Shown here piece by piece: positions 13,126-64,000 of a stretch of DNA of 64,000 nucleotides. The position numbers and the translations under genes are program-made. Within the stretch, counting starts at the first letter, position 1; every line of letters begins with the position of its first letter. The notes under the pieces were generated by a model. It was not told the origin of the DNA. It worked only from the letters and a program-made list of their open reading frames with translations, and searched no databases. Origin of the DNA: Flavobacteriales bacterium UBA3364 (GTDB lineage: Bacteria > Bacteroidota > Bacteroidia > Flavobacteriales_F > PHOS-HE28); NCBI GenBank assembly GCA_002360495.1, contig DEQO01000066.1, positions 10,563-74,562 on the forward strand, read 5' to 3'.

Positions 13126-13311
13126 ACCATGAAGGCCGATCCCCGAAGAGCGGTCCGTGTCCTATTCCATAGGCCATGGAAAATGCCCCGGTGCCACACG
13201 CTGGGCGATGACAACGCGTTGTTCATGGACGGCCGCCCGAATGGGAAGCACGCTGTTCGGCGCGGTTACCTTCGCCCTTCGATCACCTTCGCCAGCAGGC
13301 AGGCTCCAACC

Positions 13312-16944: not shown

Positions 16945-19617
16945 ATGAGCGAAACGACGGATAAGGGATTGCGACTGAGCAAGGTGGCCAGGGAGTTCAA
17001 CCAAGGGTTGCACACCGTGGTGGAGTTCCTCGAGAAGAAGGGACATAAGGTGGAGAGCAACCCCAACACCAAGATCGACGGGGCGCTCTACGAACTGCTG
17101 TTGCAGGAGTTCGGTACCGACAAGGCCATCAAGGAACAGAGCAAGGCGACCGTCCAGTTGCGCCAGGAGCGCGAGACCATCTCGCTCGTGACCGCAGCTC
17201 CTGCGAAGGAAGCGCCGAAGAAGAAGGCGGAGGACCCCGCACAAACACCACCTCCTGCCGCCGCCGCACCTGCGCCAGTGACGCCTGCCCCGGCGGAACC
17301 GGACGTCATCAAGGCAAAGGCCGAAAAGGTCGAAGGTCCCAAGACCTTGGGCAAGATCGATCTGGACGCGCCGAAGAAGGGCGCCAAGAAGGCGGCAAGG
17401 ACCGAAGCGGCTGCGCCAGCTGAAGTTCCGGCACCGGAGGTTCCGGCGACTCCGGCGGTCGGGCCTGATGCAGCGACTACGGAAGCTCCCGTGGAACCCG
17501 AGACGATCCGGGTGAACGTGCAGAAACTGGCCGGGTTGAAGACCCTGGGCAAGATCGACCTGCCCGTCGAGAAGGAGCGCAAGCCCGCCGAACGCGGAAC
17601 GGATGCGGATCGTGGTCGTCGCAAGCGCATCGTGAAACCGGGACCGGTCAATGTGGAGCGCACCGTCCAGCAGGAGCAGCGCAATGCACCTGCAACGGGT
17701 CGTCCGGGCGAACTCGATGAGAATGCGGTGAAGCGCAAGGTGAGCGAAACCCTCGCGCGCCTCACCGGAGGCAAGAGCAAGGGCGCCAAACTGCGTCGTG
17801 AAAAACGCGATCAGCGCGGACGGCGTTTCGAGGAAGAACAAGCCGCCAAGGAACTGGCCGGTATGACCCTCAAGGTCACCGAATTCGTGACCGCGAGCGA
17901 ACTGGCGAGCATGATGAGCGTACCGGTCACGGACATCATCAAGGCTTGCTTCGCCTTGGGTATGATGGTGAGCATCAACCAACGCCTCGATGCCGAGACC
18001 CTCGCAGTGATCGCTGAGGAATACGGGTTCAAGGTGGAGTTCGTCGGCGCCGAGGTACAATTGGACCTTCAGGAAGAGGCCGATGTGGAGGAGCGTATCG
18101 AACCGCGTCCGCCCATCGTCACCGTGATGGGCCACGTCGATCATGGCAAGACCTCGTTGCTGGACTACGTGCGCAAAGCCAACGTGATCGCCGGTGAAGC
18201 GGGCGGTATTACCCAGCACATCGGTGCCTACGGCGTACAACTGCCCAACGGCAAGCAGATCACCTTCCTGGACACTCCGGGTCACGAAGCGTTCACCGCC
18301 ATGCGTGCGCGCGGTGCCCAGGTCACCGACATCGCGATCATCGTGATCGCCGCGGACGACAGTGTGATGCCACAAACGCGTGAGGCCATCAACCACGCAC
18401 AAGCGGCGGGTGTCCCGATGGTCTTCGCCTTCAACAAGATCGACAAGCAAGGCGCCAACGCCGAGAAGATCCGCGAACAGCTCAGCCAGATGAACATCCT
18501 GGTCGAGGAATGGGGCGGCAAGTTCCAGACCCAGGAGATCAGCGCCAAGCAAGGAAAGGGCGTGGAGCAGCTGTTGGAAAAGGTCCTGCTCGAAGCCGAC
18601 ATGCTCGAGTTGAAGGCCGATCCGGGCAAACGTGCGCACGGAGTGGTGATCGAAAGCACCTTGGAACAAGGACGGGGTTATGTAACGACCCTCCTCGTGG
18701 ATGCCGGCACGTTGCGCAAAGGGGACATCATCCTTGCCGGCCAGTTCAGCGGTCGTGTGCGGAACATGTTCAATGAGCGTGGTCAGCAGGTCATGGAGGC
18801 CACACCGTCCACCCCGGTCTCCATCCTGGGCCTCGATGGGGCGCCTAACGCAGGTGACACCTTCCAGGTCTTCGAGGACGAACGCGATGCACGCACCATC
18901 GCCACGCGTCGCCAGCAGCTGCAGCGCGAACAGGGCATCCGCACGCACAAGCACATTACGCTGGACGAGATCGGTCGTCGTCTCGCCATCGGCGACTTCA
19001 AGGAACTGAACCTCATCGTGAAAGGCGACGTGGACGGTTCCGTGGAAGCGCTCACCGATTCCTTGCTGAAGCTCAGCACCGAAAGCATCAAGGTGAACGT
19101 GATCCACCGTGCGGTGGGTCCGATCGCCGAGAGCGACATCCTGCTCGCAACGGCTTCCAACGCCATCGTCATCGGTTTCCAAGTGCGACCCACTCCGGGT
19201 GCGCGCAAGCTGGCGGAGACAGAGGAGATCGACATCCGCCTGTACTCCATCATCTACGCGGCGATCGACGAGATCAAGCAGGCGATGGAAGGCATGCTCG
19301 CGCCGAAGGAAGTGGAGAAGATCACCGGTACCGCGGAAGTACGCGAGACCTTCCGCATCAGCAAGGTGGGTACCGTTGCCGGCTGCTACGTGCTCGATGG
19401 AAAGCTCGATCGCAAGAACAAGGTGCGCCTCATCCGCGATGGCATCGTGGTCTACACCGGCGATCTCGATACGCTGAAGCGTTTCAAGGACGACGTGAAG
19501 GAAGTATCACACGGTTACGAGTGCGGCCTCAACATCAAGAACTTCAACGACGTCAAAGTGGGCGACCACATCGAAGCCTTTGAGATGGTGGAGGTGAAGC
19601 GTACGCTGAACGATTGA
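16945..19617 (+). CDS. infB: translation initiation factor IF-2
   Basis: ORF 16888..19617; start taken at ATG 16945 ([18 protein letters not shown]). GTPase motifs [20 protein letters not shown] and NKID. Ala/Pro/Lys-rich N-terminal linker. Confidence 0.95.
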
Positions 19618-19653: not shown

Positions 19654-20106
19654 CAACCGCGGCATCTCGATCTCGTCCGGCACGATATAGCTGCCGGGGT
19701 AAAGCAGCTTCATGTCGCGAAGCAGATGCTCCGCTTCCAGACGTGTATAGAGGTCACCCACCCGCAGGCGGAAATTCGGGGCGAGCCAGCTCAAATAGGC
19801 CGGGATGTCCGGGTTCTTCTGCAGGAAAGCACGCTTGGTATCCTCGGCGGTCTTGCGGTCGCCCAGGAAGATCTGCACCCTGTAGCCTTTTTGGGGATGC
19901 TTGCGTTCACTATGATCCTTCAGAAGGGCCTCGATCCGGGGCGGAACCGTGATCTTGACATCACCAGTGCGGGAGAGCGCTGTATCACCAACGGGCGTAT
20001 CGACCGCAAGTTCAGCCCCGCTGGAAGAAAGGGGCACCGAGGTGCCTGTCTGGGCCGGGACCGGGATCACCAGGAACAACGAGAAGGCAACAAGGAGCGA
20101 ACGCAT
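19645..20106 (-). CDS. SPOR domain protein (peptidoglycan binding) with signal peptide
   Basis: ORF 19645..20286; start moved to ATG 20106 (MRSLLVAFSLFLVIPVPAQ). C-terminal GYRVQIFLGDRKTAEDTKRAF...RLRVGDLYTRLEAEHLL fits SPOR repeats. Confidence 0.7.
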   Translation of the reverse strand: MRSLLVAFSLFLVIPVPAQTGTSVPLSSSGAELAVDTPVGDTALSRTGDVKITVPPRIEALLKDHSERKHPQKGYRVQIFLGDRKTAEDTKRAFLQKNPDIPAYLSWLAPNFRLRVGDLYTRLEAEHLLRDMKLLYPGSYIVPDEIEMPRLED

Positions 20107-20328
20107 CGGTTTGGTGGGGGCCAAAAGTATGCCGTTCACAAAGTGCCACGGTCCATGTGCCAACGGATGAGGGACCCGTGCGATCGAGCCGACGTGCGAT
20201 ACCCCATCGGGCCTGCAACACCTTGGTGGACAATGTACTTCGTTGTGAATGTTATTTAGAATAGCTCTAAATAGTGACATCCCCATGGCAAGTCTTCAAC
20301 CGTGCAGCCCCACGATCGGTCCGCCGTG

Positions 20329-20336
20329 TATTTTTG
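20329..20336 (+). promoter_or_regulatory. candidate Bacteroidota -7 promoter box (TAnnTTTG) upstream of actA
   Basis: TATTTTTG is an exact match to the TAnnTTTG consensus and lies 34 nt upstream of the actA ATG. No convincing -33 element was seen. Confidence 0.3.
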
Positions 20337-20369
20337 CGGCCGGACAAACGGATGTAGGTCCCTCCTAAA

Positions 20370-21698
20370 ATGCTCGGAATGCCGCTTGTAGCAAGGATTT
20401 CAGAACGTTCCACCGGGCTCCTTCACGCAACCCTCGCACTCGTCCTTTTCCTGTTCTCGGCCGCAGCTCAGGCCCAACCTGCCGACGCGGCCTTGTATGC
20501 CCAGGGGGAAAAGCTCTTCAAGGGCAACTGCGCAAGCTGCCACAAGCCCGATAAGGACCTCACGGGTCCGGCCTTGAAGGGTGCCCGTGCCCGCTGGGAA
20601 GGGAAAGGCGACATCTATGCCTGGGTCAAGAACAGCACCGCATATCTCAAGACGGGCAACCCGTACGCCAACGAACTCTTCGCCAAGTGGAACAAGAGCG
20701 TAATGACCGCACAGGCGCTCCAGGATGCGGAGATCGATGCTGTGCTATACTACACGGACAACTATGCTCCGCCGGTCGGCCCCAAGCCACCTACGGATCC
20801 GAACCCGGAACCAGGGACATCCGTTAGCAATTGGCCATGGCTCGTTGTCATCGCACTCCTTTTGTTGATCGTTGGCATTTCGCTCAGTGGTGTCAAGAGG
20901 AGCCTGACCAACGCGGTCCTCGAAGCAGAAGGCAAGGAGCCCCTGCCGGACATGACCACCGGTCAGAAGATCCGCAATTGGGCTTGGCACAACAAGGCGT
21001 TCGCGAGCATCATCGGCCTGTTCATAGTGGTCTTCCTGACGCTGAAAGCGTGGGATGCGGCTTGGGTGGTCGGTGTCTATGGCGGTGATGAAGTGGAGCA
21101 CTACAAGCCGGAGCAGCCGATCAAGTTCAACCACACGCTGCATGCAGGCAAGGTGGACAAGGGCAACCTCGCGATCAACTGCCAGTATTGCCATAGCAGC
21201 GCGGAGAAGAGCAAGCACGCCGGGATCCCCAGCACCAATGTGTGCATGAACTGCCACCAAGCCGTGGCCGAAGGGCGTACCCCGGAGGGCACCAAGGAGA
21301 TCGCGAAGATCTACGCCGCTGTGGGCTGGGATGGCAAGGCATACACCGGCAAGCCGGAGCCTGTGAAGTGGGTGAAAGTGCACAACCTGCCCGATCACGC
21401 CTACTTCAACCACGCACAACACGTTGCCGTGGGCAAGTTGGAGTGCCAGGAGTGCCATGGCCCGATCGACGAGAAGATGGACGTCGCCGAGCAATGGGCG
21501 CCGCTCACCATGGGCTGGTGCATCAAGTGCCATGCCGAGAAGGATGTGAAGATGGCCGGCAACGGCTACTACGACGAGATCATGGCCCGCTTGGAGGAGA
21601 CCGACATGGGCCACCAGGAATTGAAGAAGTATCTGGAGGACGAGAAGATCAGTGTGAAGGAGCTTGGAGGCTGGGAATGCTCCAAGTGCCACTACTAA
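20370..21698 (+). CDS. actA: alternative complex III subunit ActA (multihaem cytochrome c with N-terminal monohaem domain)
   Basis: Six CxxCH motifs (CASCH, CQYCH, CMNCH, CQECH, CIKCH, CSKCH); first gene of the actABCDEF order. Confidence 0.85.
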   Translation: MLGMPLVARISERSTGLLHATLALVLFLFSAAAQAQPADAALYAQGEKLFKGNCASCHKPDKDLTGPALKGARARWEGKGDIYAWVKNSTAYLKTGNPYANELFAKWNKSVMTAQALQDAEIDAVLYYTDNYAPPVGPKPPTDPNPEPGTSVSNWPWLVVIALLLLIVGISLSGVKRSLTNAVLEAEGKEPLPDMTTGQKIRNWAWHNKAFASIIGLFIVVFLTLKAWDAAWVVGVYGGDEVEHYKPEQPIKFNHTLHAGKVDKGNLAINCQYCHSSAEKSKHAGIPSTNVCMNCHQAVAEGRTPEGTKEIAKIYAAVGWDGKAYTGKPEPVKWVKVHNLPDHAYFNHAQHVAVGKLECQECHGPIDEKMDVAEQWAPLTMGWCIKCHAEKDVKMAGNGYYDEIMARLEETDMGHQELKKYLEDEKISVKELGGWECSKCHY

Positions 21699-53168: not shown

Positions 53169-54101
53169 ATGGCTACCAAGACATTGACCGTCCGCCGTAC
53201 GGCGGGCATGCCCGACCCGCGCACCACGCCGACCATCGACCAGGTCGGCATCGAAGAGCGCGTGGCCCGCATCAAAACGCGCAGCATCAAGAAGGAGACC
53301 AAGGTGCAGGGCATGAAGCTCGCGCTGAGCATGATCGATCTCACGACGCTTGAAGGTGCCGATACACCGAGCAAGGTGAGGCAGCTTTGCTACAAGGCCA
53401 TGCATCCGCATGATGCACTGCCGGGGCTTCCGAATTGCGCCGCCATCTGCGTTTATCCTTCACTGGTGAAAGTGGCGAAGAAGGCGCTCGGCGATAGCGG
53501 TGTGAAAGTGGCCAGTGTTTCAACGGCCTTTCCGAGTGGACAAGCGCCGCGCAACGTGAAGATCACGGACACCAGGTTCGCCGTGAACGAAGGCGCCGAC
53601 GAGATCGACATGGTGATCAGTCGTGGTCACTTCCACAGCGGCGACTACAACTTCGTTTACGACGAGATCGCCGCCATCAAGGAAGCGTGCGGCGATGCAC
53701 GGTTGAAAGTGATCCTCGAGACAGGCGAGCTCGGCACCTACGACAAGGTGCGTCTCGCCAGTGACATCGCCATTGCAGCCGGCGCCGACTTCATCAAGAC
53801 CAGCACGGGCAAGATCAATCCGGCGGCAACCATGGAAGTGACGCTCGTGATGTTGCACGCCATCCGCGACCACTACCTGAAGACCGGGCAGATGATCGCG
53901 ATGAAGCCCGCCGGTGGCATCCGCAAAAGCAAGGAGGCGCTGCACTACCTGATGATGGTGAAAGAGGAGCTCGGCCCCGAATGGCTGAGCAACCACTGGT
54001 TCCGTTTCGGCGCGAGCAGTCTGGCCAACGACATCCTGATGCAATTGCAGAAGGAAGCCGACGGGCACTACCAGAGCGCGGACTATTTCAGCCTCGACTG
54101 A
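53169..54101 (+). CDS. deoC: deoxyribose-phosphate aldolase (long form)
   Basis: ATG 53169 within ORF 53091..54101. Motifs IDLTTLEGADT, EIDMVISRG, DFIKTSTGK (Schiff-base Lys) and MKPAGGIR. Confidence 0.9.
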   Translation: MATKTLTVRRTAGMPDPRTTPTIDQVGIEERVARIKTRSIKKETKVQGMKLALSMIDLTTLEGADTPSKVRQLCYKAMHPHDALPGLPNCAAICVYPSLVKVAKKALGDSGVKVASVSTAFPSGQAPRNVKITDTRFAVNEGADEIDMVISRGHFHSGDYNFVYDEIAAIKEACGDARLKVILETGELGTYDKVRLASDIAIAAGADFIKTSTGKINPAATMEVTLVMLHAIRDHYLKTGQMIAMKPAGGIRKSKEALHYLMMVKEELGPEWLSNHWFRFGASSLANDILMQLQKEADGHYQSADYFSLD

Positions 54102-54423: not shown

Positions 54424-55881
54424 ATGAACCACATTACCCGCAGTCTTTTTCTTATCGGCACCACTCTGGCGATCTCCATCACTGGTGCGCAGACCCCCAC
54501 TCATCAGCACGTTCAGCACAACACCGTGGGCAGTTCGCAGAGCGAGGTGAACGGCGTGGCGCACGACAGCCAGGGCAACATGATCGTGTGCGGTGGCCGA
54601 ATGGATGCCCTCGACTTCGGCGGCACGGCCCATGAGGCGGGCACGGGTGGGATCTTCGTTGCGAAGTTCGGTCCGGGCGGCTCCGAGATCTGGAGCAAGA
54701 TCGCCGGTTCGGCTGAGACCATGGGCAACCACAAAGCCATGTCCGTTGCTGTGGACGGCAGTGACAACGTCTATGTGGCCGGCTGGCTCTTCGTGGCCCA
54801 GGCAGCCACCTTCGATGGTACCACATTGCCTGCAGGCAGTCTGGGATTCGTAGCCAAGTATTCAGCATCCGGCACCCTGACCTGGGTGAAGGAGTTCTCT
54901 GCGAACGTGAACGCTATAGCGGTGGACGGCAACGGAGTTCCTTTCATCAACCTGGGCGATCAAACGATCCTGAAATTGGACCCGGCGAATGGCAGCGAAA
55001 CGGCCAGCGGCGCGGGCGGCGGCGACCTGATGAACGTGCTCTACCACAACATCGTGGTGGACGGTTCGAACAATATCATCGCCCAATGGGGCAACAAGAT
55101 CCGGAAGTACGACAACGCACTGAACGAGATCTGGAGCACGCCGTTGGTCAAGGCCTTCGGCGCCGAGTCATTCCGCATCAGTGTGGACAACAACGGCCTG
55201 GTCTGGGCATCGTTCTATGCGGTGTTCGGAACTGTGACCTTGGCGGGCACTGACTACACCACGTTCCCCAACGGTTACATCTATCACCTGGATGGTGCTG
55301 ATGGAGGCGTGATGGGCTGCGTGGTGCTCACGCCCGGCGGCACCGCCAGCAAGCCCCAGGAAGTGATCAACGACGGCAGTTCCAACCTCTACGTGAGCGG
55401 CACGTTCGCCTTCAATGCGCCCTATATCGTGAAGGTGGATCCGTCGTTCACGACGATCTGGAGCGTGCCGACCTTCAACGTGGAGGATATGGACGTGCAA
55501 GGCCTCGATTGCCTGCTTATCGGTGGGAGTCACGCAGCCGACATCACTCTTGATGGCACGACCTACACGCGGCCGAACGGCTCGGGCCAGGACAATGCGA
55601 TGGCAGCGTACCTGTGCGCTGGAGGTGTTGGCATGGATGAGCAGGGTGCGGTGGATGTGACCGTATTTCCGAATCCAACAGATGGTCTCATCGCCCTTCA
55701 GATCCCCGCGCAAGCGATCGGATCCAACTATCAGGTGGTTGACCTTACTGGATCCGAAGCATTGACCGGGCGGGTAACGGGTCGGTCGATGGACCTCGAC
55801 CTGTCATCGTTGGCGGGTGGCTGCTATGTGCTTAAGATCGTGGGGGCAGGCATTGCACCGGTCCGGGTGGTGAAGCAGTAG
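54424..55881 (+). CDS. SBBP/beta-propeller-repeat T9SS cargo protein
   Basis: ATG 54424 within ORF 54337..55881. Signal peptide, repeated ..VAVDGSDNVYVAG.. / ..IAVDGNGVPFIN.. units, and CTD VTVFPNPTDGLIALQI...GCYVLKIVGAGIAPVRVVKQ. Confidence 0.75.
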   Translation: MNHITRSLFLIGTTLAISITGAQTPTHQHVQHNTVGSSQSEVNGVAHDSQGNMIVCGGRMDALDFGGTAHEAGTGGIFVAKFGPGGSEIWSKIAGSAETMGNHKAMSVAVDGSDNVYVAGWLFVAQAATFDGTTLPAGSLGFVAKYSASGTLTWVKEFSANVNAIAVDGNGVPFINLGDQTILKLDPANGSETASGAGGGDLMNVLYHNIVVDGSNNIIAQWGNKIRKYDNALNEIWSTPLVKAFGAESFRISVDNNGLVWASFYAVFGTVTLAGTDYTTFPNGYIYHLDGADGGVMGCVVLTPGGTASKPQEVINDGSSNLYVSGTFAFNAPYIVKVDPSFTTIWSVPTFNVEDMDVQGLDCLLIGGSHAADITLDGTTYTRPNGSGQDNAMAAYLCAGGVGMDEQGAVDVTVFPNPTDGLIALQIPAQAIGSNYQVVDLTGSEALTGRVTGRSMDLDLSSLAGGCYVLKIVGAGIAPVRVVKQ

Positions 55882-55966
55882 GCGGCCAGGCGTGATCTTG
55901 GATCAATGCGCCCCCCGATCACCACATGATGTGCACCAACGCATCCAATAGGCCGAGGCGATCTGC

Positions 55967-56068
55967 TTCCGCTTCGGCGCCAGCAGCCTTGCCAACGACA
56001 TCCTGATGCAGTTGCAGAAGGAAGCCGACGGCCACTACCAGAGCGCGGACTATTTCAGCCTCGACTGA
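55967..56068 (+). pseudogene. orphan second copy of the last 33 codons plus stop of deoC
   Basis: 102 nt aligning base-for-base with 54000-54101 (6 mismatches). It encodes the identical FRFGASSLANDILMQLQKEADGHYQSADYFSLD* but has a stop codon 6 codons upstream and no deoC body. Confidence 0.85.
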
Positions 56069-56078
56069 CGCATCGATC

Positions 56079-56570
56079 ATGACCGACCTCCGACCCCTTT
56101 TCGTGAAGATGGCCCTGGACGCATGGGGCAGGGAAGTGAGCGCCACGAGCACCCTGCTCGGGAAGCTGTCCGATGACCAGGTGATGAAGGAGGTGTCACC
56201 GGGCAGGAACCGCGGCATCTACCTCCTCGGCCACCTCACCGCCGAGCACGACCAGATGCTTGCATTGCTGCGCTTCCAGGAGGTGATGCATCCGGAGCTC
56301 AAGCCGGTGTTCATCGACGCACCTGACCGCGCGGTCGCCGCGCTGCCTTCCATGCACCAGCTCCGCGAGCAGTGGACGACGGTGAACGACACGTTATTGG
56401 ATCACGCGAAGCGCCTGCCACCGGAGGAATGGTTCACGCGCCATGCGAACATCTCTGCAGATGACTTTCCGAAGGAGCCGCACCGCAACCGGCTGAACGT
56501 TCTGCTGAGCCGCACGAACCACCTGGCCTACCACCGCGGGCAGCTGGTATTGCTGGCGGAGAAGGGATAG
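56079..56570 (+). CDS. DinB-superfamily protein
   Basis: 163 aa, four-helix-bundle-like, with His positions typical of DinB/YfiT (LLGHLTAEHD ... NHLAYHRGQL). Confidence 0.8.
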   Translation: MTDLRPLFVKMALDAWGREVSATSTLLGKLSDDQVMKEVSPGRNRGIYLLGHLTAEHDQMLALLRFQEVMHPELKPVFIDAPDRAVAALPSMHQLREQWTTVNDTLLDHAKRLPPEEWFTRHANISADDFPKEPHRNRLNVLLSRTNHLAYHRGQLVLLAEKG

Positions 56571-56596
56571 GCCGGGAGACACCCGATCTTCGCCGG

Positions 56597-57277
56597 ATGG
56601 ATCACTCGCATTCCCCGAAGTTCGTCGCCTACCGGCCGGCACGCGTGGACGCTGCCGAGATGCGTGACCGTGCGAAGCGATTCCACGAGTTGCTCGCCGG
56701 CCGCCGGAGTGTCCGGCATTTCAGTGAAGAGCCCGTTCCGATCGAGGTCATCGAACACCTGGTCCGAACGGCCGGCACGGCGCCAAGCGGTGCGCACAAG
56801 CAGCCCTGGACCTTTTGCGTGGTAACGGACCCTGCGTTGAAGCACGCCATCCGCAAAGCCGCGGAAGAGGAGGAGCGTGCGAGCTACGAAGGTCGCATGC
56901 CGCCTGAATGGCTGGAGGATCTGGCACCACTCGGCACGGACTGGCACAAGGAGTTCCTGGACATCGCCCCGTGCCTGATCGTGGTGTTCAAGCGCGCCTA
57001 TGAAGTGATGCCCGATGGTTCGAAGCGCAAGAACTACTATGTGGAGGAGAGCGTTGGCATAGCCAGTGGTTTCCTCCTTGCGGCCGCCCGGAACGCGGGA
57101 CTCGTCACGCTCACGCACACGCCCAGCCCCATGAATTTCCTGGCCCGAATCCTGCAACGGCCGGAGAACGAGCGGGCCTTTCTGTTGATCCCGGTCGGTT
57201 ACCCCGCGGCTGATTGCGAGGTGCCGGACCTGCAGCGCAAGGCCCTTGATCAGGTCATGGTGCGGTACGGAAGCTGA
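56597..57277 (+). CDS. iodotyrosine-deiodinase-like flavin nitroreductase
   Basis: RRSVRHFS FMN-binding start. The block EEEERASYEGRMPPEWLEDLAPLGTDWHKEFLDIAPCLIVVFK and the end LLIPVGYPAADCEVPDLQRKALDQVMV closely follow the IYD-subfamily pattern as I recall it. Confidence 0.8.
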   Translation: MDHSHSPKFVAYRPARVDAAEMRDRAKRFHELLAGRRSVRHFSEEPVPIEVIEHLVRTAGTAPSGAHKQPWTFCVVTDPALKHAIRKAAEEEERASYEGRMPPEWLEDLAPLGTDWHKEFLDIAPCLIVVFKRAYEVMPDGSKRKNYYVEESVGIASGFLLAAARNAGLVTLTHTPSPMNFLARILQRPENERAFLLIPVGYPAADCEVPDLQRKALDQVMVRYGS

Positions 57278-57352
57278 ACCCGTACCGCCTGTTGCCCGGC
57301 CCTCTGCCTTCGCACATCGCGTCATCGCCATTCTGGCTTCGGCGTGTGATAG

Positions 57353-57764
57353 ATGACAACCAAGAAGAAGCGGCCCTCGATCGGACCCTCGCACCCGCCT
57401 CGGGTCCAAGGACCATGTCCGCACCTCACCGCTTTTTACCAGCTCTATCGATCGCAAGCGGGTGAAGCCGAGTTCCGGTAAGTACTTCGGTACGATCAAC
57501 CCCGCAAACGAGCATGAGCTCGCGTGCATCGCCAACGCGAATGAAGCCGATGTGGGTGCCGCATCCGTGATGGCGCTTGGATCGGGGTGCGATCCGGACA
57601 GGCGTGCCTCATCCAAGGACTCAGCGGCTAGCTGGTATTGCGTGGGCACACGGTTGCAGGCCAAGGACCTACCAGGACGCATCGTGTTGTTCACACTCCA
57701 ACCCGTTCTCCGATGTGTATGCGAGGGGCCATCGCTCCGCACCCTGAAACACACCTTCAAATGA
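57353..57764 (+). pseudogene. aldehyde dehydrogenase 5' remnant, copy A (multiple frameshifts)
   Basis: ATG ACA ACC AAG AAG AAG..., then across frames ALDRTLAPASGSKDHVRTSPLFTSSIDRKRVKPSSGKYFGTINPANEHELACIANANEADV. This is the ALDH N-terminal signature, and no catalytic domain follows. Confidence 0.75.
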
Positions 57765-58975
57765 GAACATATTCCGCTTTCAGCGCACTTATCCTGGCAT
57801 CCGGCCTTGCCGCCCAATGGAGCCAGATGAACACCGGTCTCGCCACGCTCGATCACGGCGCTGCCATACATGGCGCAACGCCGAACTACATCTTCGCCAG
57901 GGCTTACAACGTGCTGTACCGGAGTGATGACCATGGTGGAACATGGACCTCGGTGCCCAGCCCGAGCACGTGGGGGCCTTCGGATGTGGGCTACTATTAC
58001 AATGATCGTTATGTGGTGGGAACGAGCGCGATCGGGACCTGCCTCCACTACTCGGACAACGAAGGCAATTCCTGGTCACCCGCCACCGGGGGGCCAACGG
58101 CAACAGCGGTGCGGGGTTTCTTCGAGTATGGTGAGGCGTTGTACGCTTACACGGACCAGCAGGGCATCTATCGCACCCTGGACGGTGCAGCGTGGACCGC
58201 GGTGAACAGTGGCCTTACTTCCCTGGACGTGGTGGGCATGGCGGCGGTGGGGCCATACTTCGTAGCAGCGACGAATGGTGGTGGTGTGTTCCGCACCATC
58301 AACGCAAGTTCCTGGACGCAGGCGACCGGCATTGGCAGTGCTGACCTGGATGGTGAACATGTCTGGCAGATGGGCGGCAACGTGCACTATTCCGCACAAG
58401 GGGGTGTAACGTACCGTAGCACCGACATCGGCCTGACGTTCACCGAATGGACGGCGCCGGCGTTCTTCGGCGTCGGGCTGGAGGAAGTGAAGCGCTTCGG
58501 CAGCAACAACCTGTACATGGAAACGCGTCATTTCGCAGGTGGTGAACGGGACAGCCTTTATCGTTCCACGAACAACGGTGGGGCCTGGACCAACATCACC
58601 GGTAACCTCGATGCCGCCGACCTTCGCGGGAGCGGCATCTTCGAGTACGATGGCTATGTGTTCATCGCGTACACCATGGGTTCCCTAGAGGGGATCTACC
58701 GCTATACGCTTTCCACAGGGATCGCCGATGCGGAACGCCTCGAGGCGGTGACGGTCTTTCCGAATCCCACCAGCGACAACGTCATGATCAAGCTGCCTTT
58801 CGTGCATGGTGCGGAGCGTTACACACTTCATGATGCGTTGGGTGCGCAGATCAGTGCTGGCACTGTTACATCGACCGCGATGCAGCTCGACCTCTCCGGT
58901 GTAGGACCCGGTTGCTACCTGCTGCGTTGGGACGATGCACTGCTCGCTCCGGTGCGCCTGGTGAAACAGCGCTGA
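57761..58975 (+). CDS. BNR/sortilin-like beta-propeller T9SS cargo protein (paralogue 1)
   Basis: ATG 57761 within ORF 57638..58975. Signal peptide, repeated S.D.G.(T/S)W motifs (RSDDHGGTWTSV, SDNEGNSWSPA, STNNGGAWTNI) and CTD VTVFPNPTSDNVMIKL...LLRWDDALLAPVRLVKQR. Confidence 0.8.
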   Translation: MRTYSAFSALILASGLAAQWSQMNTGLATLDHGAAIHGATPNYIFARAYNVLYRSDDHGGTWTSVPSPSTWGPSDVGYYYNDRYVVGTSAIGTCLHYSDNEGNSWSPATGGPTATAVRGFFEYGEALYAYTDQQGIYRTLDGAAWTAVNSGLTSLDVVGMAAVGPYFVAATNGGGVFRTINASSWTQATGIGSADLDGEHVWQMGGNVHYSAQGGVTYRSTDIGLTFTEWTAPAFFGVGLEEVKRFGSNNLYMETRHFAGGERDSLYRSTNNGGAWTNITGNLDAADLRGSGIFEYDGYVFIAYTMGSLEGIYRYTLSTGIADAERLEAVTVFPNPTSDNVMIKLPFVHGAERYTLHDALGAQISAGTVTSTAMQLDLSGVGPGCYLLRWDDALLAPVRLVKQR

Positions 58976-58995
58976 GCACGAAGGCCAGGACCAGG

Positions 58996-59032
58996 AATGA
59001 CAACGGCGGGGTGGGCCCCCGCCGTTGTCATT
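58996..59032. terminator. bidirectional terminator hairpin between convergent genes
   Basis: Perfect 16-bp stem AATGACAACGGCGGGG-TGGGC-CCCCGCCGTTGTCATT. Confidence 0.6.
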
Positions 59033-59045
59033 GGTAAGTGTTCGT

Positions 59046-59612
59046 TCACTTCTTCGCTTGATCCCCGGCACCGCCCATCATGCCCAACTGCTCCATCATC
59101 TTCATCTCCTCCATGTAGCCCCAGTGCTCCACGATCTTCCCGTTCTCGAACCGGAGGATGTCCACGCAGTTCACGTCGACGGACGCATTGGTGGCCGGCA
59201 TGCCTTCGCCCATCGCGCCGGTGTTCTTTCCCTTCCAACGGTAATGCAGGATCACACGGTCGCCTTCAGCGGTCAAATGCAGGTCCTCCGCTTTGTTCTC
59301 GGAAAAGGCCGCGCTGGACATGGCGATCATGTCTTTCAGTTTCTGCACGCCGGTGCTGGTAACGCCCGGCATGGACATATGGGTCGTGAAGCTCTCGGCC
59401 ACGACCGCGTCAAGGCCATCGGTCTTTCCGGTCCACCAGGCGTCGAGGAAGCCTTGGGCGGCCTGCTTCATTTGATCCGCGGTGGCCTTGTTGGCGCTGT
59501 CGGCTGTGAGCATGGCCTGGTGGTCGGCCATCATCTTGTCATGCTCCGGATGGGAGCCGCCGCAAGCGACGAGCATCGCCAGCGGGAAAGCGAGGAAAAG
59601 GTGTTTGGTCAT
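59046..59612 (-). CDS. SnoaL-like (ester cyclase family) lipoprotein
   Basis: ORF 59046..59678; start moved to ATG 59612 (MTKHLFLAFPLAMLVACGG lipobox). C-terminal DVNCVDILRFENGKIVEHWGYM is typical of the SnoaL-like fold. Confidence 0.65.
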   Translation of the reverse strand: MTKHLFLAFPLAMLVACGGSHPEHDKMMADHQAMLTADSANKATADQMKQAAQGFLDAWWTGKTDGLDAVVAESFTTHMSMPGVTSTGVQKLKDMIAMSSAAFSENKAEDLHLTAEGDRVILHYRWKGKNTGAMGEGMPATNASVDVNCVDILRFENGKIVEHWGYMEEMKMMEQLGMMGGAGDQAKK

Positions 59613-59726
59613 GGGGTTGGGGATCGGTGAAAGTGGCTCGAAGATATTGGTCCGGCCGATGCTATTGGGCGACCGCACCAGCGAGCGGCACGCCGACTTC
59701 GGTTAAATTTCCCGAAAGCCCTCGCC

Positions 59727-60179
59727 ATGCCTGCCGGTCCCTACCATTGGTTCCTCAACACCCTCGTGCGCGTACATGTCTCGTGCGATGAGGGCGCCGA
59801 CCACGTCTCCTACATCGAGCACCATGTGCGCAAGGGGGAGTCACCGCCGCTGCACATCCACGAGCGGGAGGACGAGATCTTCCACCTGATCGCGGGCGAA
59901 TTCACTTTCCGGCAAGGCGATACCGACGTGAGGAAAGGACCGGGCGATGTGATCTTCATTCCCAAGGGCACGCCGCACACCTTCTGCTGCGATTCAGCGA
60001 CCGGGCACTTCTTCAGCATCACCACCGGGCGCGACTTCGAGCTTTTCCTTCGCGCCATGTGGCGGCCGGCCGAGCGTGCTGAGTTGCCCACTCCTGTCGC
60101 GCCATCGCCTGCGAACATTGAAGCGTTGGGCAGGGCAGCAGCGGAGCATCACATGCCGGTGGTTGGGCCGCCGCTGTAA
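59727..60179 (+). CDS. cupin domain protein
   Basis: Cupin motifs PPLHIHEREDEIFHLIAGE and GDVIFIPKGTPHTF. Confidence 0.75.
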   Translation: MPAGPYHWFLNTLVRVHVSCDEGADHVSYIEHHVRKGESPPLHIHEREDEIFHLIAGEFTFRQGDTDVRKGPGDVIFIPKGTPHTFCCDSATGHFFSITTGRDFELFLRAMWRPAERAELPTPVAPSPANIEALGRAAAEHHMPVVGPPL

Positions 60180-60208
60180 GTCTCTTCACCTCCCGCTATC
60201 TTGGACCC

Positions 60209-60286
60209 ATGGCCAAAAAGAACGCGATCGATTGGGCCTTGGACTCTGCACCGGAATCGAAGGACCACATCCGCAACAACGGATGA
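60209..60286 (+). pseudogene. aldehyde dehydrogenase 5' remnant, copy B (25 codons)
   Basis: MAKKNAIDWALDSAPESKDHIRNNG* aligns with copy D's MAKKQTLDWTLAPAPESTDYVKINA. It shares the upstream GCTATCTT.GAC.C context, and its TGA overlaps the next ATG. Confidence 0.6.
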
Positions 60287-60779
60287 TATGGCCATTCAGC
60301 TTTGCCACTCAGCAAACCATCATCTGGATCGGCTTCTACCTGGCGTTCGCTTCATGGACTGTGCTGGCTATCCTTCTCTTGAGGCACCTCATCAAGAAGA
60401 CTGGCCCCGCTTCAAGATCACCCTGCTCTACGCGTTGAACAGCCTCAGCTTACTGTTCGCTTACGGAATGATCCTAGCGCTGGCGTTGATCGTTGTTACG
60501 CCTATTGAGGATACACGGGAACACTCCATCGACATCATATGGAACGAGGCCAACCGCTACTTCGCTGACCATTTGCAGTTCGCGGTCATCGCCCTTCTTT
60601 GCTATGTGGTGCTTGACCTGGCGTACATGAAGTACCTCGTGCGTCGATGTGTGACCCGCCATACGCTCATCCTGTTCGTTGCAAATGCAGTGGTGCTCTT
60701 TTCGGCGGTGTACCTATCAGTCGGTTCCTACTACACGGGCATGCTCCAAGAGATAGACCGGTACTTCCTTGGGCGGTGA
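60283..60779 (+). pseudogene. small polytopic membrane protein, apparently frameshifted in a C4 run near 60405-60408
   Basis: The frame of ATG 60283 gives MIWPFSFATQQTIIWIGFYLAFASWTVLAILLLRHLIKKTGP (TM-like), then stops at 60438. The adjacent frame continues RFKITLLYALNSLSLLFAYGMILALALIVV... (TM-like) to 60779. Confidence 0.45.
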
Positions 60780-60812
60780 TGACAAGACCCGTCCCTTCTA
60801 CCTTCGCTCACG

Positions 60813-61048
60813 ATGGCAACCAAGAAGTAAGCCCTCGACCGACAACTCACCCCTGCCCCCGGGTCCCAGGCCTTGTTCACATCTCACCACATCACAGGCT
60901 CTTCATCAACGGCAAGTAGGTGGAGCCCAAGAGCAGGAAGTACTTCGGCACGATCGACCTGGTCAATGACAGGATGATGGTGTGCGCGAACACGTCCTCA
61001 CGCCCGCGGTCCGGTGAACGAGCTCTCCACAATGCTTATCATCGCTGA
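60813..61048 (+). pseudogene. aldehyde dehydrogenase 5' remnant, copy C (two nonsense codons and a frameshift)
   Basis: MATKK*ALDRQLTPAPGS..., then a frameshift, then LFINGK*VEPKSRKYFGTIDLVNDRMMVCANTSS. There is a TAA at codon 6 and a TAG where Trp of LFINGKW is expected. Confidence 0.75.
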
Positions 61049-61061
61049 AATTCCGATCCGC

Positions 61062-62297
61062 ATGTCCATGCTGCTACGTTCGTTGATCCTCGTTCCGACC
61101 GTTTGCGCGCTCTACACGCAGGCCCAATGGACACAGGTCAATTCGGGCATCACCGACCTGGCCCAAGGTGCCACTGTGCTGGGAGCCACGAACGACCATT
61201 TGATCGCCAGGGCCGGATGGAACATGTACCGCAGTTCGAATGATGGCGATACGTGGTCGTCGATCCAGCCTCCCGTCGCCTTCAATAGCACCGAGTGCGG
61301 CTATTTCCGAGCGGGACGCTATTTCGCTGGAATGAGCGCGTCCGGCGATTGCATCTACTTCACGAACGACAATGGCGGCACATGGAACCCGGTGACCGGG
61401 GCACCGACAGCCACGGTCGTCAGGGGATTCCACGAGTTGGGCACCGGGCTGTACGCGTACACCTCCAACTTGGGCATCTACCGATCCTTGAACAACGGCG
61501 ATTCTTGGCAGGCCGTGAATGTGGGCCTCTCCAACCTCAACGTCTTCTCGATGGGCTCCAGCGGTACGCACCTGTTCGCTTGCACCATCGGTGATGGCGT
61601 CTTCGTTAGTACCGATGCCGGTGCGAGCTGGTCACCCTCCAATGCTGGGATCGCCAAGGGCGACCTGAACGGAGAGCATGTGTGGAGAATGGGAAACGAG
61701 ATGTACTACACGGCGCAGGGTGGTGGCAAATACCGGAGCACGGATCTCGGCGCCAACTGGTCGGTCTGGGCATGGCCTTCGTTGTTCGGCGTCGGTCTGC
61801 TCGAAGTGGAACGCTTCGGTGGCAACCTCTATATCGAAACACGCCACTTCACCGGTGCATATCGCGATAGCGTGTACACCTCGACGGATGAAGGTCAGGG
61901 CTGGACCAACATCACGGGGAACCTCGACGCGGCGGACCTCAATGGTTCTGGATTGGTCGAGTTGAACGGCTATCTCTTTCTCGGATACAACGTGATCTCC
62001 CCCGGGGAAGGCATCTATCGCCGCGGTATCGCAACGGGCATCGACGACCTCATCCCCGCAGCGGAACAGTTACCCGCTGTCTATCCGAACCCGGCGCATG
62101 ACCTGTTGACGCTACAGGCATCGTTGCAGCATGGTCCAATGAAGTACGCACTGGTGGACATTGCCGGGGCAGTAGTGCTGAACGGGTCGATGACAAGTGC
62201 CACGGAGGTCTGCGATGTCTCTGCCCTTGCGCCAGGTGCTTATTTGCTCCAGTGGAATGATGGAATGGTTCCGCCGGTCCGCATCATCAAGCAGTAA
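61062..62297 (+). CDS. BNR/sortilin-like beta-propeller T9SS cargo protein (paralogue 2)
   Basis: ATG 61062 within ORF 61014..62297. Colinear with 57761..58975 along its whole length (e.g. GEHVWRMGNEMYYTAQGG vs GEHVWQMGGNVHYSAQGG; WTNITGNLDAADL is identical). CTD is AVYPNPAHDLLTLQ...LLQWNDGMVPPVRIIKQ. Confidence 0.8.
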   Translation: MSMLLRSLILVPTVCALYTQAQWTQVNSGITDLAQGATVLGATNDHLIARAGWNMYRSSNDGDTWSSIQPPVAFNSTECGYFRAGRYFAGMSASGDCIYFTNDNGGTWNPVTGAPTATVVRGFHELGTGLYAYTSNLGIYRSLNNGDSWQAVNVGLSNLNVFSMGSSGTHLFACTIGDGVFVSTDAGASWSPSNAGIAKGDLNGEHVWRMGNEMYYTAQGGGKYRSTDLGANWSVWAWPSLFGVGLLEVERFGGNLYIETRHFTGAYRDSVYTSTDEGQGWTNITGNLDAADLNGSGLVELNGYLFLGYNVISPGEGIYRRGIATGIDDLIPAAEQLPAVYPNPAHDLLTLQASLQHGPMKYALVDIAGAVVLNGSMTSATEVCDVSALAPGAYLLQWNDGMVPPVRIIKQ

Positions 62298-62360
62298 CGG
62301 AAGGGGGTAGAGCGTCAGCGCTCCGCGCTTCTGCGCGTGTGCCTTGGCTATCTTCGACAC

Positions 62361-62549
62361 ATGGCCAAGAAACAAACCCTCGACTGGACCCTCGCCCCCG
62401 CCCCCGAGTCCACCGACTACGTCAAGATCAACGCCCAATACAAGCTCTTCATCAACGGCAAGTGGCAGAAACCCAATAGAGGACAACGGGCGGGGATCAT
62501 CAAGTGGACCGGCGCCATGATTCCCCCACTGGATGCCGACCACTGCTGA
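62361..62549 (+). pseudogene. aldehyde dehydrogenase 5' remnant, copy D (best preserved)
   Basis: MAKKQTLDWTLAPAPESTDYVKINAQYKLFINGKWQKP is intact for about 38 codons, then loses ALDH similarity and stops at 62549. No ALDH body follows. Confidence 0.8.
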
Positions 62550-62562
62550 TTGTCCTTGATCC

Positions 62563-64000
62563 ATGCGCCGGTCGCAGCTAACCCCATTCCTGCAATTTGT
62601 TCCGAGGTTCGGCCTTATGGCGCTGTTGTGGTCACTGATCTTCGATCTATCCGTCCTCGCCCAATACCCGGCCATTCCGCTGGATATCGACTCCCAGCGG
62701 GTAATGCTGAGGACCACGGAGAACGATACCGCACGCTGCCTTTTGCATATCAGTCTTTGCGTTGACCTGCGTTATTCCGATCCGGAAGAGGCGCTCGATC
62801 ATGGCTACAAGGCTATCGAAGCCTGCCGGGCCGTCCGTATTCCCCGGCTCCATTCGGTGGCACTAACGAACACGGGGGTCTGCCTGAAGAACGCGGGCAA
62901 ATACGCCGAAGGGCTCGACCTGTTCCAGCAGGCCTACCATCTACAGGATTCGCTGGGGCTGAAGGATAAGGTGCTGGGTACGCTGCGCAGCATGGGTAGC
63001 CTGCACTACATGCAGGGCAAGTATGACCGCGCCTTGGAAACGGCGCAGTTGGCCAGGAAGGTGTTGGACACGCTGGACCTGCCCGAGCACCGTGCCGGTG
63101 TGGACAACTCCTTCGGAGATGCGTACCGCGGGCTGGGCATCCTGGACTCCTCCATTCACTATTACACGGAGGGAATGAAGGAGGCCGAAGCCAATGGCCT
63201 CGCCTTGGAATACGGTGTGGCCGTGAACGGTCTTGGCTTGACCTACTTCGACCGCAAGGACTACCGCAATTCGGCACTTTACTACGAACGCTCATTGGAG
63301 TTGGCGCGCCAACTGGGTCGGCCGGATGCGGAAGCAGCCTCGTTGCTCAATGCGGGATCGGCCTATGGCATGTTGGGCGGGCATGCCAAGGGAGTGGACT
63401 ACCTCACCCGTGCATTGAAGATGGGCGAGGAACAGAAGGACCTCTACTTGCAATACGAGTGTTTGAAGTCCCTGGCGGAACTGGATGGCAGGGTGGGCGC
63501 GCACAAGAGCGGCTTTGAGCATCTCCAACGCATGCACTTCGTGGCCGATTCCATCAAAGCGATCGAGAACCGGAAGCTCACCGCCGAGTTCGAGGTGCGG
63601 TTCGATACCGAGCGGAAGGAGAAGGAGATCGAAGTGCTCGGGCTGGAGAAACATGTCCAGGCCGAAGCGCTCGACAAAGAGCGACTGCGCCGTAACGTGC
63701 TTATCGGAGGTCTGTTGGCCGTGCTTGTCTTCGCGGTCGTCGTCTTCCTCCAGCGCAACCGCATCCGAAAGGAGAAGCAGCGCAGCGAGGAGTTGCTCCT
63801 GAACATCCTGCCGGAGGAAACGGCCGAGGAACTCAAGGCGAAGGGTTCTGCCGAAGCCAAGCTCTTCGACGAGGTCACCGTGCTCTTCACCGACTTCAAG
63901 GACTTCACCCAGGTGGCCGAGACCATGACGCCACAGGCGCTCGTGGCCGAGATCCATCATTGCTTCAAGGCTTTCGATACCATCATGGAGAAGAACGGCA
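62563..64000 (+). CDS. TPR-repeat, single-TM class III adenylate/guanylate cyclase (3' end beyond window)
   Basis: Not in the ORF track because no stop is reached. Hand translation from ATG 62563 is open to 64000: TPR-like repeats (GKYAEGLDLFQQAY..., GKYDRALETAQLA..., YRNSALYYERSLELA...), a coiled coil, a TM (VLIGGLLAVLVFAVVVFL), then LLLNILPEETAEELKAKG...VTVLFTDFKDFT. The start could be ATG 62617. Confidence 0.85.
   Translation, partial: MRRSQLTPFLQFVPRFGLMALLWSLIFDLSVLAQYPAIPLDIDSQRVMLRTTENDTARCLLHISLCVDLRYSDPEEALDHGYKAIEACRAVRIPRLHSVALTNTGVCLKNAGKYAEGLDLFQQAYHLQDSLGLKDKVLGTLRSMGSLHYMQGKYDRALETAQLARKVLDTLDLPEHRAGVDNSFGDAYRGLGILDSSIHYYTEGMKEAEANGLALEYGVAVNGLGLTYFDRKDYRNSALYYERSLELARQLGRPDAEAASLLNAGSAYGMLGGHAKGVDYLTRALKMGEEQKDLYLQYECLKSLAELDGRVGAHKSGFEHLQRMHFVADSIKAIENRKLTAEFEVRFDTERKEKEIEVLGLEKHVQAEALDKERLRRNVLIGGLLAVLVFAVVVFLQRNRIRKEKQRSEELLLNILPEETAEELKAKGSAEAKLFDEVTVLFTDFKDFTQVAETMTPQALVAEIHHCFKAFDTIMEKNG

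Follow-up and report, generated by a model that had tools for sequence, protein, structure and literature searches.

The ALDH stubs of the window

The stretch of DNA analysed here, called the window, is a 64-kb segment of a contig of Flavobacteriales bacterium UBA3364. The interval in it that begins at deoC and leads towards a gene for an aldehyde dehydrogenase (ALDH) is occupied by accessory genes, several of which are preceded by a short piece of the ALDH 5′ end, here called a stub. An initial annotation, made from the letters of the window alone, had pointed to four such segments, and their identity as ALDH 5′-end fragments is confirmed. A DNA profile of nine intact ALDH 5′ ends from the clade of close relatives, with positions counted from the ATG, matches exactly four sites in the window when searched with nhmmer; the next best match has an E value of 0.014. 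The four stubs are listed below, together with the tblastn matches obtained with the neighbouring intact ALDH as the query.

57347-57574, plus strand: stub A, ALDH positions -8 to +215 (nhmmer E 4e-40; tblastn residues 17-69, E 6e-13)
60184-60287, plus strand: stub B, ALDH positions -24 to +79 (nhmmer E 1.3e-9; tblastn residues 1-27, E 6e-5)
60801-61061, plus strand: stub C, ALDH positions -14 to about +230 (nhmmer 60801-60984, positions -14 to +170, E 1.5e-27; tblastn residues 13-77, E 4.5e-7)
62339-62482, plus strand: stub D, ALDH positions -22 to +122 (nhmmer E 9e-30; tblastn residues 1-42, 74% identity, E 9e-16)

The four segments share the ALDH N-terminus at both levels, with E values of 4e-40 to 1e-9 in nhmmer and 9e-16 to 6e-5 in tblastn, and comparison of the window with itself is also significant. 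On the same strand, the DNA of stubs A and C is 70.6% identical across 153 nt (E 5e-11), that of C and D 70.8% across 120 nt (E 4e-9), and that of A and D 78.7% across 47 nt (E 1e-4), while B and D are 88% identical across 25 nt around the start codon (E 2e-3). The stubs reach at most about 77 of the 484 ALDH codons and do not include a complete catalytic domain (Pfam PF00171). As the initial annotation had observed, no ALDH body lies within the window; the intact gene begins outside it, at window-equivalent position 64476. A profile search found no additional decayed stubs between deoC and stub A.

Are the stubs successive stages of decay? This earlier description holds only loosely. Stub A has several frameshifts and a degenerate promoter-like box at -48, and stub C has a stop at codon 6 as well as frameshifts. 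By contrast, B and D are free of lesions: B stays in frame for 25 codons and has the box TATCTTGG at -12, and D has an intact reading frame and the box TATCTTCG at -12. The differences between B and D had been described as mainly conservative replacements, pointing to different functional alleles, but over 25 codons there are 8 synonymous and 12 non-synonymous differences. Moreover, two intact ALDH alleles differ at 28 of 120 nt in their first 40 codons, as much as stub B differs from stub D; the divergence can therefore neither date the stubs nor identify their source, and the argument from different alleles is weak. Divergence from the resident gene was also considered as a clock for the stubs and fails for the same reason, the intact alleles being equally variable in the first 120 nt.

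It could be argued that the short open reading frames (ORFs) are not scars but functional leader peptides or small regulatory proteins. Stub D is an intact 62-codon ORF that has been called as a gene, and the stubs lie directly upstream of genes and retain the promoter-like box. However, A and C contain stops and frameshifts, the lengths range from 24 to about 145 codons, no common reading frame is kept across genomes, the 5′ halves of orthologous stubs differ, and no Rfam match was found. With lengths, frames and lesions varying among genomes in this way, the stubs are not conserved stand-alone genes, and a function as peptides is highly improbable.

Cargo genes

Each stub is followed by an accessory gene, here called its cargo, and these genes are the ones previously named: two propeller proteins with sorting signals of the type IX secretion system (T9SS), a small membrane protein and a TPR-cyclase. 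The distances between stub and gene, on the other hand, do not always fall within the 0-14 nt first reported, at about 187 nt for A, 0-66 nt for B, 23 nt for C and 80-134 nt for D. The genes of the interval are as follows.

53169-54101, plus strand: deoC, deoxyribose-phosphate aldolase (Pfam DeoC, E 2.6e-23; gene call at L001 3443-4375)
54424-55881, plus strand: T9SS-sorted cargo gene, 485 aa (Por_Secre_tail), between deoC and a displaced deoC 3′ end
56079-57277, plus strand: DinB_2 and nitroreductase (IYD-like) genes (Pfam; synteny)
57761-58975, plus strand: propeller 1, BNR/Sortilin-like with a T9SS tail, the cargo of stub A (Pfam; 98% identical to protein P0177 of L180)
59046-59612, minus strand: SnoaL-like gene, cargo between propeller 1 and stub B (Pfam)
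59727-60179, plus strand: cupin gene, cargo between propeller 1 and stub B (Pfam)
60354-60779, plus strand: small membrane-protein cargo, 141 aa as called (gene call; alternative start at 60288)
61062-62297, plus strand: propeller 2, T9SS cargo (Pfam; 90-92% identity in L173-L178 and L180)
62617-64000 and on to window-equivalent 64416, plus strand: TPR-adenylate/guanylate cyclase cargo, 599 aa (Pfam TPR_12, Guanylate_cyc)

The TPR-cyclase is followed, beyond the window, by a 59-nt upstream region of the 'long' type and then by the intact ALDH. The two propellers are 48% identical in amino acid sequence, and in three genomes propeller 2 goes together with the 3′ half of stub C. The small membrane protein has no Pfam match. 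The DinB_2 and nitroreductase genes, which stand directly after deoC in the relatives L180 and L174, have occupied the interval for longer. The convergent propeller 1 and SnoaL-like genes are separated by a perfect inverted repeat of 16 bp (58996-59032; loop of 5 nt), probably a bidirectional terminator.

Comparison set and assembly

The locus extending beyond the window (L001) was taken from contig DAORHW010000001.1 of the metagenome-assembled genome (MAG) GCA_035438145.1 from activated sludge, which was reached via the cupin protein and is identical to the window across 14,274 nt. The clade set consists of 12 distinct loci from close relatives, including the window, all Flavobacteriales MAGs with ALDHs 88-96% identical. 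Two of them are L180 (GCA_016787685.1), whose flanks are 98-99% identical to the window, and L179 (GCA_016716605.1). Among the matches listed in the metagenome scan, identity did not exceed 79%, and the close relatives were obtained by exact-protein look-ups. A distant set comprises the first 80 genomes and 80 metagenome loci, 160 loci in total, whose upstream DNA amounts to about 1.0 Mb.

Repeats of the ALDH 5′ end might in principle have caused chimeric contig joins, and the assemblies are metagenomic throughout. The sequence of the array is the same in three assemblies of run SRR1168486, which all derive from that single run. Nevertheless, the copies are just 66-84% identical, too divergent to mislead an assembler, and three assemblers produced the identical array sequence. 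Parts of the array are also seen again in other samples: the junctions of stub A with propeller 1, stub B with the membrane-protein gene and stub C with propeller 2 occur in independent samples and MAGs. There is thus scarcely any chance that the array is an assembly artefact.

A separate discrepancy concerns the end of one contig. The ENA assembly of SRR1168486 (L002) differs from the MAG at 31 positions, all of them in its last 150 nt (L002 15092-15241); this looks like a contig-end error rather than a strain variant.

The intact ALDH and the ancestral gene order

An intact ALDH downstream of position 64000 had been predicted from the stubs, and was found there. The gene (window-equivalent 64476-65930) encodes 484 aa with a Pfam Aldedh domain, begins 476 nt beyond the end of the window, and starts 59 nt after the stop codon of the TPR-cyclase; the protein begins MAKAKKVDW (MAKAKKVDWQLAPAPES; MAKAKKVDWQLAPAPESKDHVKINAQYELFINGKWQKPKSGKYFDTINPANE).

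What did the locus look like before the insertions? ALDH is 70-79% identical across phyla, and in 62 of the first 80 distant genomes deoC is found directly upstream of it, with a gap of 15 to about 900 nt. In the window, deoC ends at 54101 and the ALDH follows 10.4 kb further on. No upstream N-terminal ALDH stub was found in any of the 160 distant loci. Extra-long tblastn matches in distant genomes were considered as possible stubs and rejected, being a conserved second ALDH paralogue directly downstream. The arrangement in which deoC is directly followed by ALDH is therefore the ancestral state, and deoC is the left core gene of an insertion hotspot.

The second paralogue (about 30% identity) directly follows ALDH in most distant genomes. 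At the present locus it is not found within 4.2 kb downstream (L001 16205-20453, window-equivalent 65931-70179), and clade relatives have it at a distance of 4-7 kb, separated from ALDH by variable defence and toxin-antitoxin genes. Its displacement indicates that the 3′ side of ALDH is a second variable junction.

Other ALDH fragments were encountered on that side. L086 contains a 3′ ALDH fragment (20044-21042; residues 152-484, 96.7% identical to the ALDH of the window) that is called as a 340-aa gene and is located 8.6 kb downstream of the intact ALDH of L086. In L090, a 70-nt internal fragment (18883-18953) lies 7.4 kb downstream of ALDH. In L179, the ALDH itself (12464-13923) is frameshifted near codon 150 and no gene is called; the split could reflect a pseudogene or an error in long-read assembly.

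Empty and occupied sites

The closest comparison is with L180, which shares with the window stub A, propeller 1, the SnoaL-like gene, stub B, the membrane-protein gene, stub C and propeller 2. Stub A is orthologous to a stub in L180 within a block, including propeller 1, that is 98% identical, and the orthologue of stub B is a B-like stub at L180 14624-14719. At the position of the cupin gene, L180 carries a different insert. Beyond propeller 2, L180 has neither stub D nor the cyclase: a 64-nt spacer that agrees with that of the window except for 3 mismatches, and that contains the box also found before stub D, is followed by an intact ALDH. Stub D occupies the site of this intact ALDH start. 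In a three-way alignment it tracks the ALDH sequence to +122 and then breaks into the cyclase cassette. It had been anticipated that cassettes would be present in some relatives and absent from others, and L180 is an exact empty site for the unit of stub D and TPR-cyclase.

Where did the new ALDH start come from? The restored ALDH of the window locus has the 59-nt 'long' upstream region, unlike the 'short' type upstream of stub D. Since the two differ, the new 5′ end was brought in along with the cargo rather than copied locally. This agrees with the earlier suggestion that each insertion brings a replacement 5′ end.

A further pair of empty and occupied sites is formed by L088 and L089, which differ by a HEAT-repeat gene inserted at +108. 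Here, the stub has kept the old upstream neighbour, and the restored ALDH is preceded by a short upstream region that is new. The right side of each insert merges into an ALDH that is 88-97% identical to that of the relative from +121 on. One junction would thus lie in homologous sequence, as is expected of the products of homology-facilitated illegitimate recombination (HFIR).

The similarity between the window and L180 is not uniform. The segment from stub B through propeller 2 into stub D (window 60213-62475, L180 14650-16909) is only 90% identical, against 98-99% in the flanking blocks, which looks as though the segment had been exchanged with a more distant lineage.

The mirror-image scar at deoC

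A fifth scar of the same kind, absent from the initial annotation, is found at the other end of the interval.

55962-56077, plus strand: deoC 3′ remnant (nhmmer with a deoC 3′ profile, E 3.3e-33), directly upstream of DinB

The remnant consists of the last ~106 nt of deoC, the stop codon and a 10-nt spacer, and is the mirror image of the ALDH stubs. It forms with the intact gene a direct repeat of 106 nt with 93% identity (53996-54101 and 55963-56068), and the T9SS cargo gene lies between the copies. A three-way alignment with the empty site shows that L180 lacks the deoC 3′ duplicate; it also lacks the T9SS gene at 54424-55881, and deoC there leads directly to DinB. A second remnant of this kind is present in L084 (2766-2884), behind an amidohydrolase gene. 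Both remnants have a T-to-C change (TTCCGCTTCGG) that is lacking in the three intact deoC genes compared.

Recombination between stubs

Stub C is composed of two parts with different relatives. From +23 to +120 it is 94% identical to stub 3 of L180, which occupies a different slot of the L180 array, and only 70% identical to the C-like stub that precedes propeller 2 in L180. From +121 (60933) to the ATG of propeller 2, by contrast, it is 98% identical to that C-like stub. Stub C is thus a chimera of two L180-type stubs, and stubs recombine with one another. The breakpoint near +120 falls just past CTCTTCATCAACGGCAAGTGG, the best-conserved stretch of the region, where a 2-nt deletion is common to several stubs in three genomes. 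In L174, the 3′ half of C and propeller 2 are 92% identical to the window from 60933 on and are joined to yet another 5′ half.

Intact genes also show signs of turnover of the ALDH 5′ end. In the intact clade ALDHs, the first 120 nt (L001 14750-14870) are 69-82% identical as against 85-98% for the remainder, and the first ~28 residues of 120 intact homologues appear as a mosaic of a few variant blocks, of the MATK(T)KK and MAKKK types.

Could the array have arisen by local tandem duplication of an ALDH 5′ end with its neighbouring gene, followed by divergence and without foreign DNA? Two of the cargo genes are paralogous. A propeller gene follows stub A as well as stub C, and these two stubs share R9, G16 and G45; among the 120 intact homologues, the three positions are occupied by W (117 homologues), E (119) and D (96, with G in none), respectively. 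However, the upstream region of the restored ALDH is unlike that of stub D, so the newest copy is not local; cargo differs per genome and is mostly unrelated on either side of a stub; for the 5′ half of stub C the match is with a differently placed L180 stub and not with stub A (72% identical); and the propellers each have close orthologues elsewhere (98% and 90%), which indicates an old split. Local duplication is contradicted for stub D and for the T9SS insertion, and is improbable as an explanation of the array.

Two narrower versions were considered and not retained. A whole-unit duplication from A-propeller-B to C-propeller-D is not tenable, as B and D are not sister copies, D lies at the ancestral ALDH start, and the 5′ half of C matches the stub in another slot of L180. 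The residues shared by A and C could suggest that the two are sister descendants of a single dead stub, but given the chimeric nature of C and an orthologue in L174 that retains D45, gene conversion or shared allele ancestry would explain these residues equally well.

Recurrence in the clade

The stub array is a real and recurrent feature of the clade, and the interpretation offered by the initial annotation is supported. There are 22 stubs (21 profile matches and one found by tblastn only) in nine of the 12 distinct genomes: five in L180, four in the window locus, three each in L174 and L086, two each in L183 and L184, and one each in L089, L090 and L179, with none in L084, L085 and L088. Their 3′ ends span +70 to +395. 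According to a tally from the gene tables, a same-strand gene starts no more than 190 nt downstream of 18 of the 22.

The cargo between deoC and ALDH differs in every close relative. It includes toxin-antitoxin pairs, T9SS cargo, and HEAT, PIN, DUF5122, amidohydrolase, SseB, PorP and peptidase genes. L183 and L184 hold orthologues of the TPR-cyclase with different junctions. A stub may also become part of a longer protein: that at L086 4723-4938 (ALDH residues 1-64) is fused in frame with an otherwise unrelated 379-aa ORF (L086 4723-5862). The fused stub has an 8-residue insertion, TRSTGSGE, which is also present in the intact homologue P0071.

A promoter-like box

Of 34 copies, 21 have the exact motif TAYCTTYG within the 70 nt upstream of the ATG, and 30 have it if up to one mismatch is allowed; at random positions of the same loci, the corresponding values are 0.7% and 6.7%. 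In the window, the 9-nt form CTAYCTTYG occurs five times against an expected 0.76. In the short upstream type the box begins at -12 to -14; in the long type, most boxes begin at -36 to -52.

The consensus of the Bacteroidota -7 promoter element is TAnnTTTG, which TAYCTTYG resembles. Short-type boxes at window 60798-60806 and 62348-62356 and at L001 14714-14721 are found 12-14 nt before an ATG; if the box is a -7 element, the short-type transcripts would be leaderless or nearly so. The stubs probably persist as suppliers of a promoter and start region for the cargo.

How were the cassettes inserted?

By what mechanism could an array with this topology, with empty sites, imported 5′ ends, chimeric stubs and recurrence across genomes, be assembled? 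We consider it reasonably probable that cassettes were inserted serially into the ALDH start, each insertion being anchored by homology and displacing the older start, and that the stubs were then shuffled among themselves. What the comparisons show is that each event placed one or more cargo genes, a short promoter-like region and a fresh ALDH 5′ end within the first 70-400 nt of the resident ALDH. The ALDH was kept intact, and the old promoter-like box, start codon and first codons were pushed upstream, where they now precede the cargo; the 3′ end of deoC shows the mirror image of this displacement.

The joining would be carried out by the general recombination machinery of the cell and not by a recombinase borne on the cassette. 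One junction would be a homologous crossover in the well-conserved body of ALDH; the other would be a non-homologous or short-homology join within the poorly conserved first ~120 nt. This second join could be made by HFIR or, equivalently, by a single crossover that integrates a circle with an ALDH 5′ fragment; one-sided homologous recombination and a single crossover with a circle produce the same topology. Once in place, a unit of stub, cargo and ALDH would provide portable homology arms, which might allow it to spread among relatives by double crossover, or to loop out and re-enter as a circle. The same process may operate in mirror image at the 3′ end of deoC.

Alternatively, a site-specific recombinase encoded elsewhere might use the ALDH 5′ and deoC 3′ ends as attachment sites and act in trans on cassettes with a matching site, as happens with integrons or Xer-dependent modules. 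Direct repeats of the end of the target gene flank each unit, and the gene is restored each time, as in tandem accretion. The cassettes are compact, mostly of one gene, co-oriented with ALDH and without a recombinase of their own. On the left, homology ends at nearly the same point, the promoter box, in the different copies, and cargo genes follow the stubs at a very short distance. The two deoC 3′ remnants have the same boundary and derived base with different cargo, and stub ends cluster at about +70-88, +105-122 and +164-215.

This clustering is partly due to orthologous stubs counted in several genomes, however, and other observations stand against an enzyme in trans. The initial annotation had noted that the window lacks integrases and transposases, and indeed no such domains were detected in the window ORFs scanned against Pfam; precomputed Pfam tables likewise list no integrase or recombinase within ~10 kb of the 12 loci, except for an IS3 transposase downstream in L084. 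Neither a tRNA gene nor a known RNA family (Rfam) that could serve as an attachment site was found, and a repeat search with a limited attC test, without a covariance model, revealed no shared or attC-like inverted repeats at cassette ends. All copies share -14 to +70, and the shortest stubs stop at +70-79, whereas the crossover in stub C lies at about +120; with stub ends ranging from +70 to +395, no single crossover core stands out, although one may lie near the start codon. On balance, an enzyme of this kind seems unlikely.

Several points weigh against homology-anchored insertion. No donor sequence was found for any junction. Cargo starts 0-190 nt from the stub end, and no partial upstream donor genes were seen; random ends of donor fragments would not predict such tight starts, unless selection or deletion tidied the junctions. 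Homology between copies starts only a few bases upstream of the box, giving a near-fixed left edge, and the left boundaries of the L084 and window deoC remnants agree within ~2-4 nt. Such fixed edges would also fit a site-specific enzyme in trans, or the inheritance of old stubs. The promoter role of the box is putative and rests on its likeness to the consensus given above. To our knowledge, neither natural competence nor another route of DNA entry has been described for this lineage, and the dataset consists entirely of MAGs or metagenome contigs.

In a more far-reaching proposal, which we put forward tentatively and regard as doubtful, the promoter and first codons of ALDH would act as a recombinase-free docking and expression platform. 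Single-gene cassettes, each with a replacement gene start, would pass among related Flavobacteriales, be inserted by the recombination system of the host and take over the displaced promoter; the whole would resemble an integron but use homology to the deoC 3′ and ALDH 5′ ends.

Relation to known systems

The array is a variant of known phenomena of insertion and displacement rather than a new class. In the tRNA islands and tycheposons of Prochlorococcus, older elements are displaced inward by newer ones, and old events can be recognized by partial tRNA copies (10.1101/2020.12.28.424599). As in such tandem accretion, repeated insertion at a single site moves older units away from the target gene, units are bounded by partial copies of the target end, incoming DNA restores the target, and degenerate copies are scattered. 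In contrast, the target here is the 5′ end and promoter of a protein-coding gene, and the units are mostly single genes of 0.5-2 kb, with no whole or fragmentary integrase in the 12 loci; the partial copies end at +70 to +395, with a crossover inside the repeat at about +120. Integrative islands are also known in the 5′ end of dusA.

HFIR (de Vries and Wackernagel 2002; Prudhomme et al. 2002, as cited in PMC2884548) likewise relies on a conserved gene as a one-sided homologous anchor, with the other end joined without homology and no dedicated recombinase. At the present locus, however, the non-homologous joint would lie inside the diverged 5′ end of the anchor gene, resulting in duplication and displacement, and the events would be repeated in natural genomes at both flanking genes. 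HFIR is known from laboratory transformation, usually with deletion of recipient DNA.

The rhs and cdiA toxin genes form C-terminal displacement arrays with 'orphan' modules. There, too, incoming DNA replaces one end of a gene, and the displaced end remains adjacent and can recombine with the main gene. The geometry of the ALDH array is the mirror image, with 5′ ends moved upstream; the relocated fragment is not functional by itself, no toxin/immunity logic applies, and the payload is an unrelated gene between the copies. Integron arrays also stack compact, mostly promoterless-looking, co-oriented single-gene cassettes beside a promoter. Unlike them, the ALDH array has no IntI, no attC was found in the limited test mentioned above, and each cassette is equipped with a separate copy of the target promoter and start, where integron cassettes share one Pc.

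Transfer hotspots between core genes have been described as holding accessory and defence genes with fast turnover, often without mobile-element genes, and the exchange is attributed there to homologous recombination in the flanks (Oliveira et al. 2017, as outlined in PMC5635113). The interval between deoC and ALDH is an instance of such a hotspot, but one in which the stubs would record individual insertions and serve as internal recombination arms. We know of no serial stubs of flanking gene ends described for those hotspots. More generally, no description of serial gene-start stubs of this kind was found in the literature, the coverage of which was incomplete, so that this is weak evidence of novelty.

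Significance

A practical consequence concerns annotation: the short 'genes' of 42-100 aa called at these loci are relics of gene starts. Gene-gain hotspots free of mobile elements are common in bacteria, and the entry of genes into them is mostly inferred rather than seen. Here, insertions left scars that can be read in the sequence, and the empty sites in near-identical relatives allow single events to be reconstructed base by base. If the process is indeed recombinase-free, the locus would be natural evidence that one-sided homology is sufficient for building arrays of accessory and defence genes, in which displaced gene starts would become the promoters of the newcomers and homology arms for further exchange.

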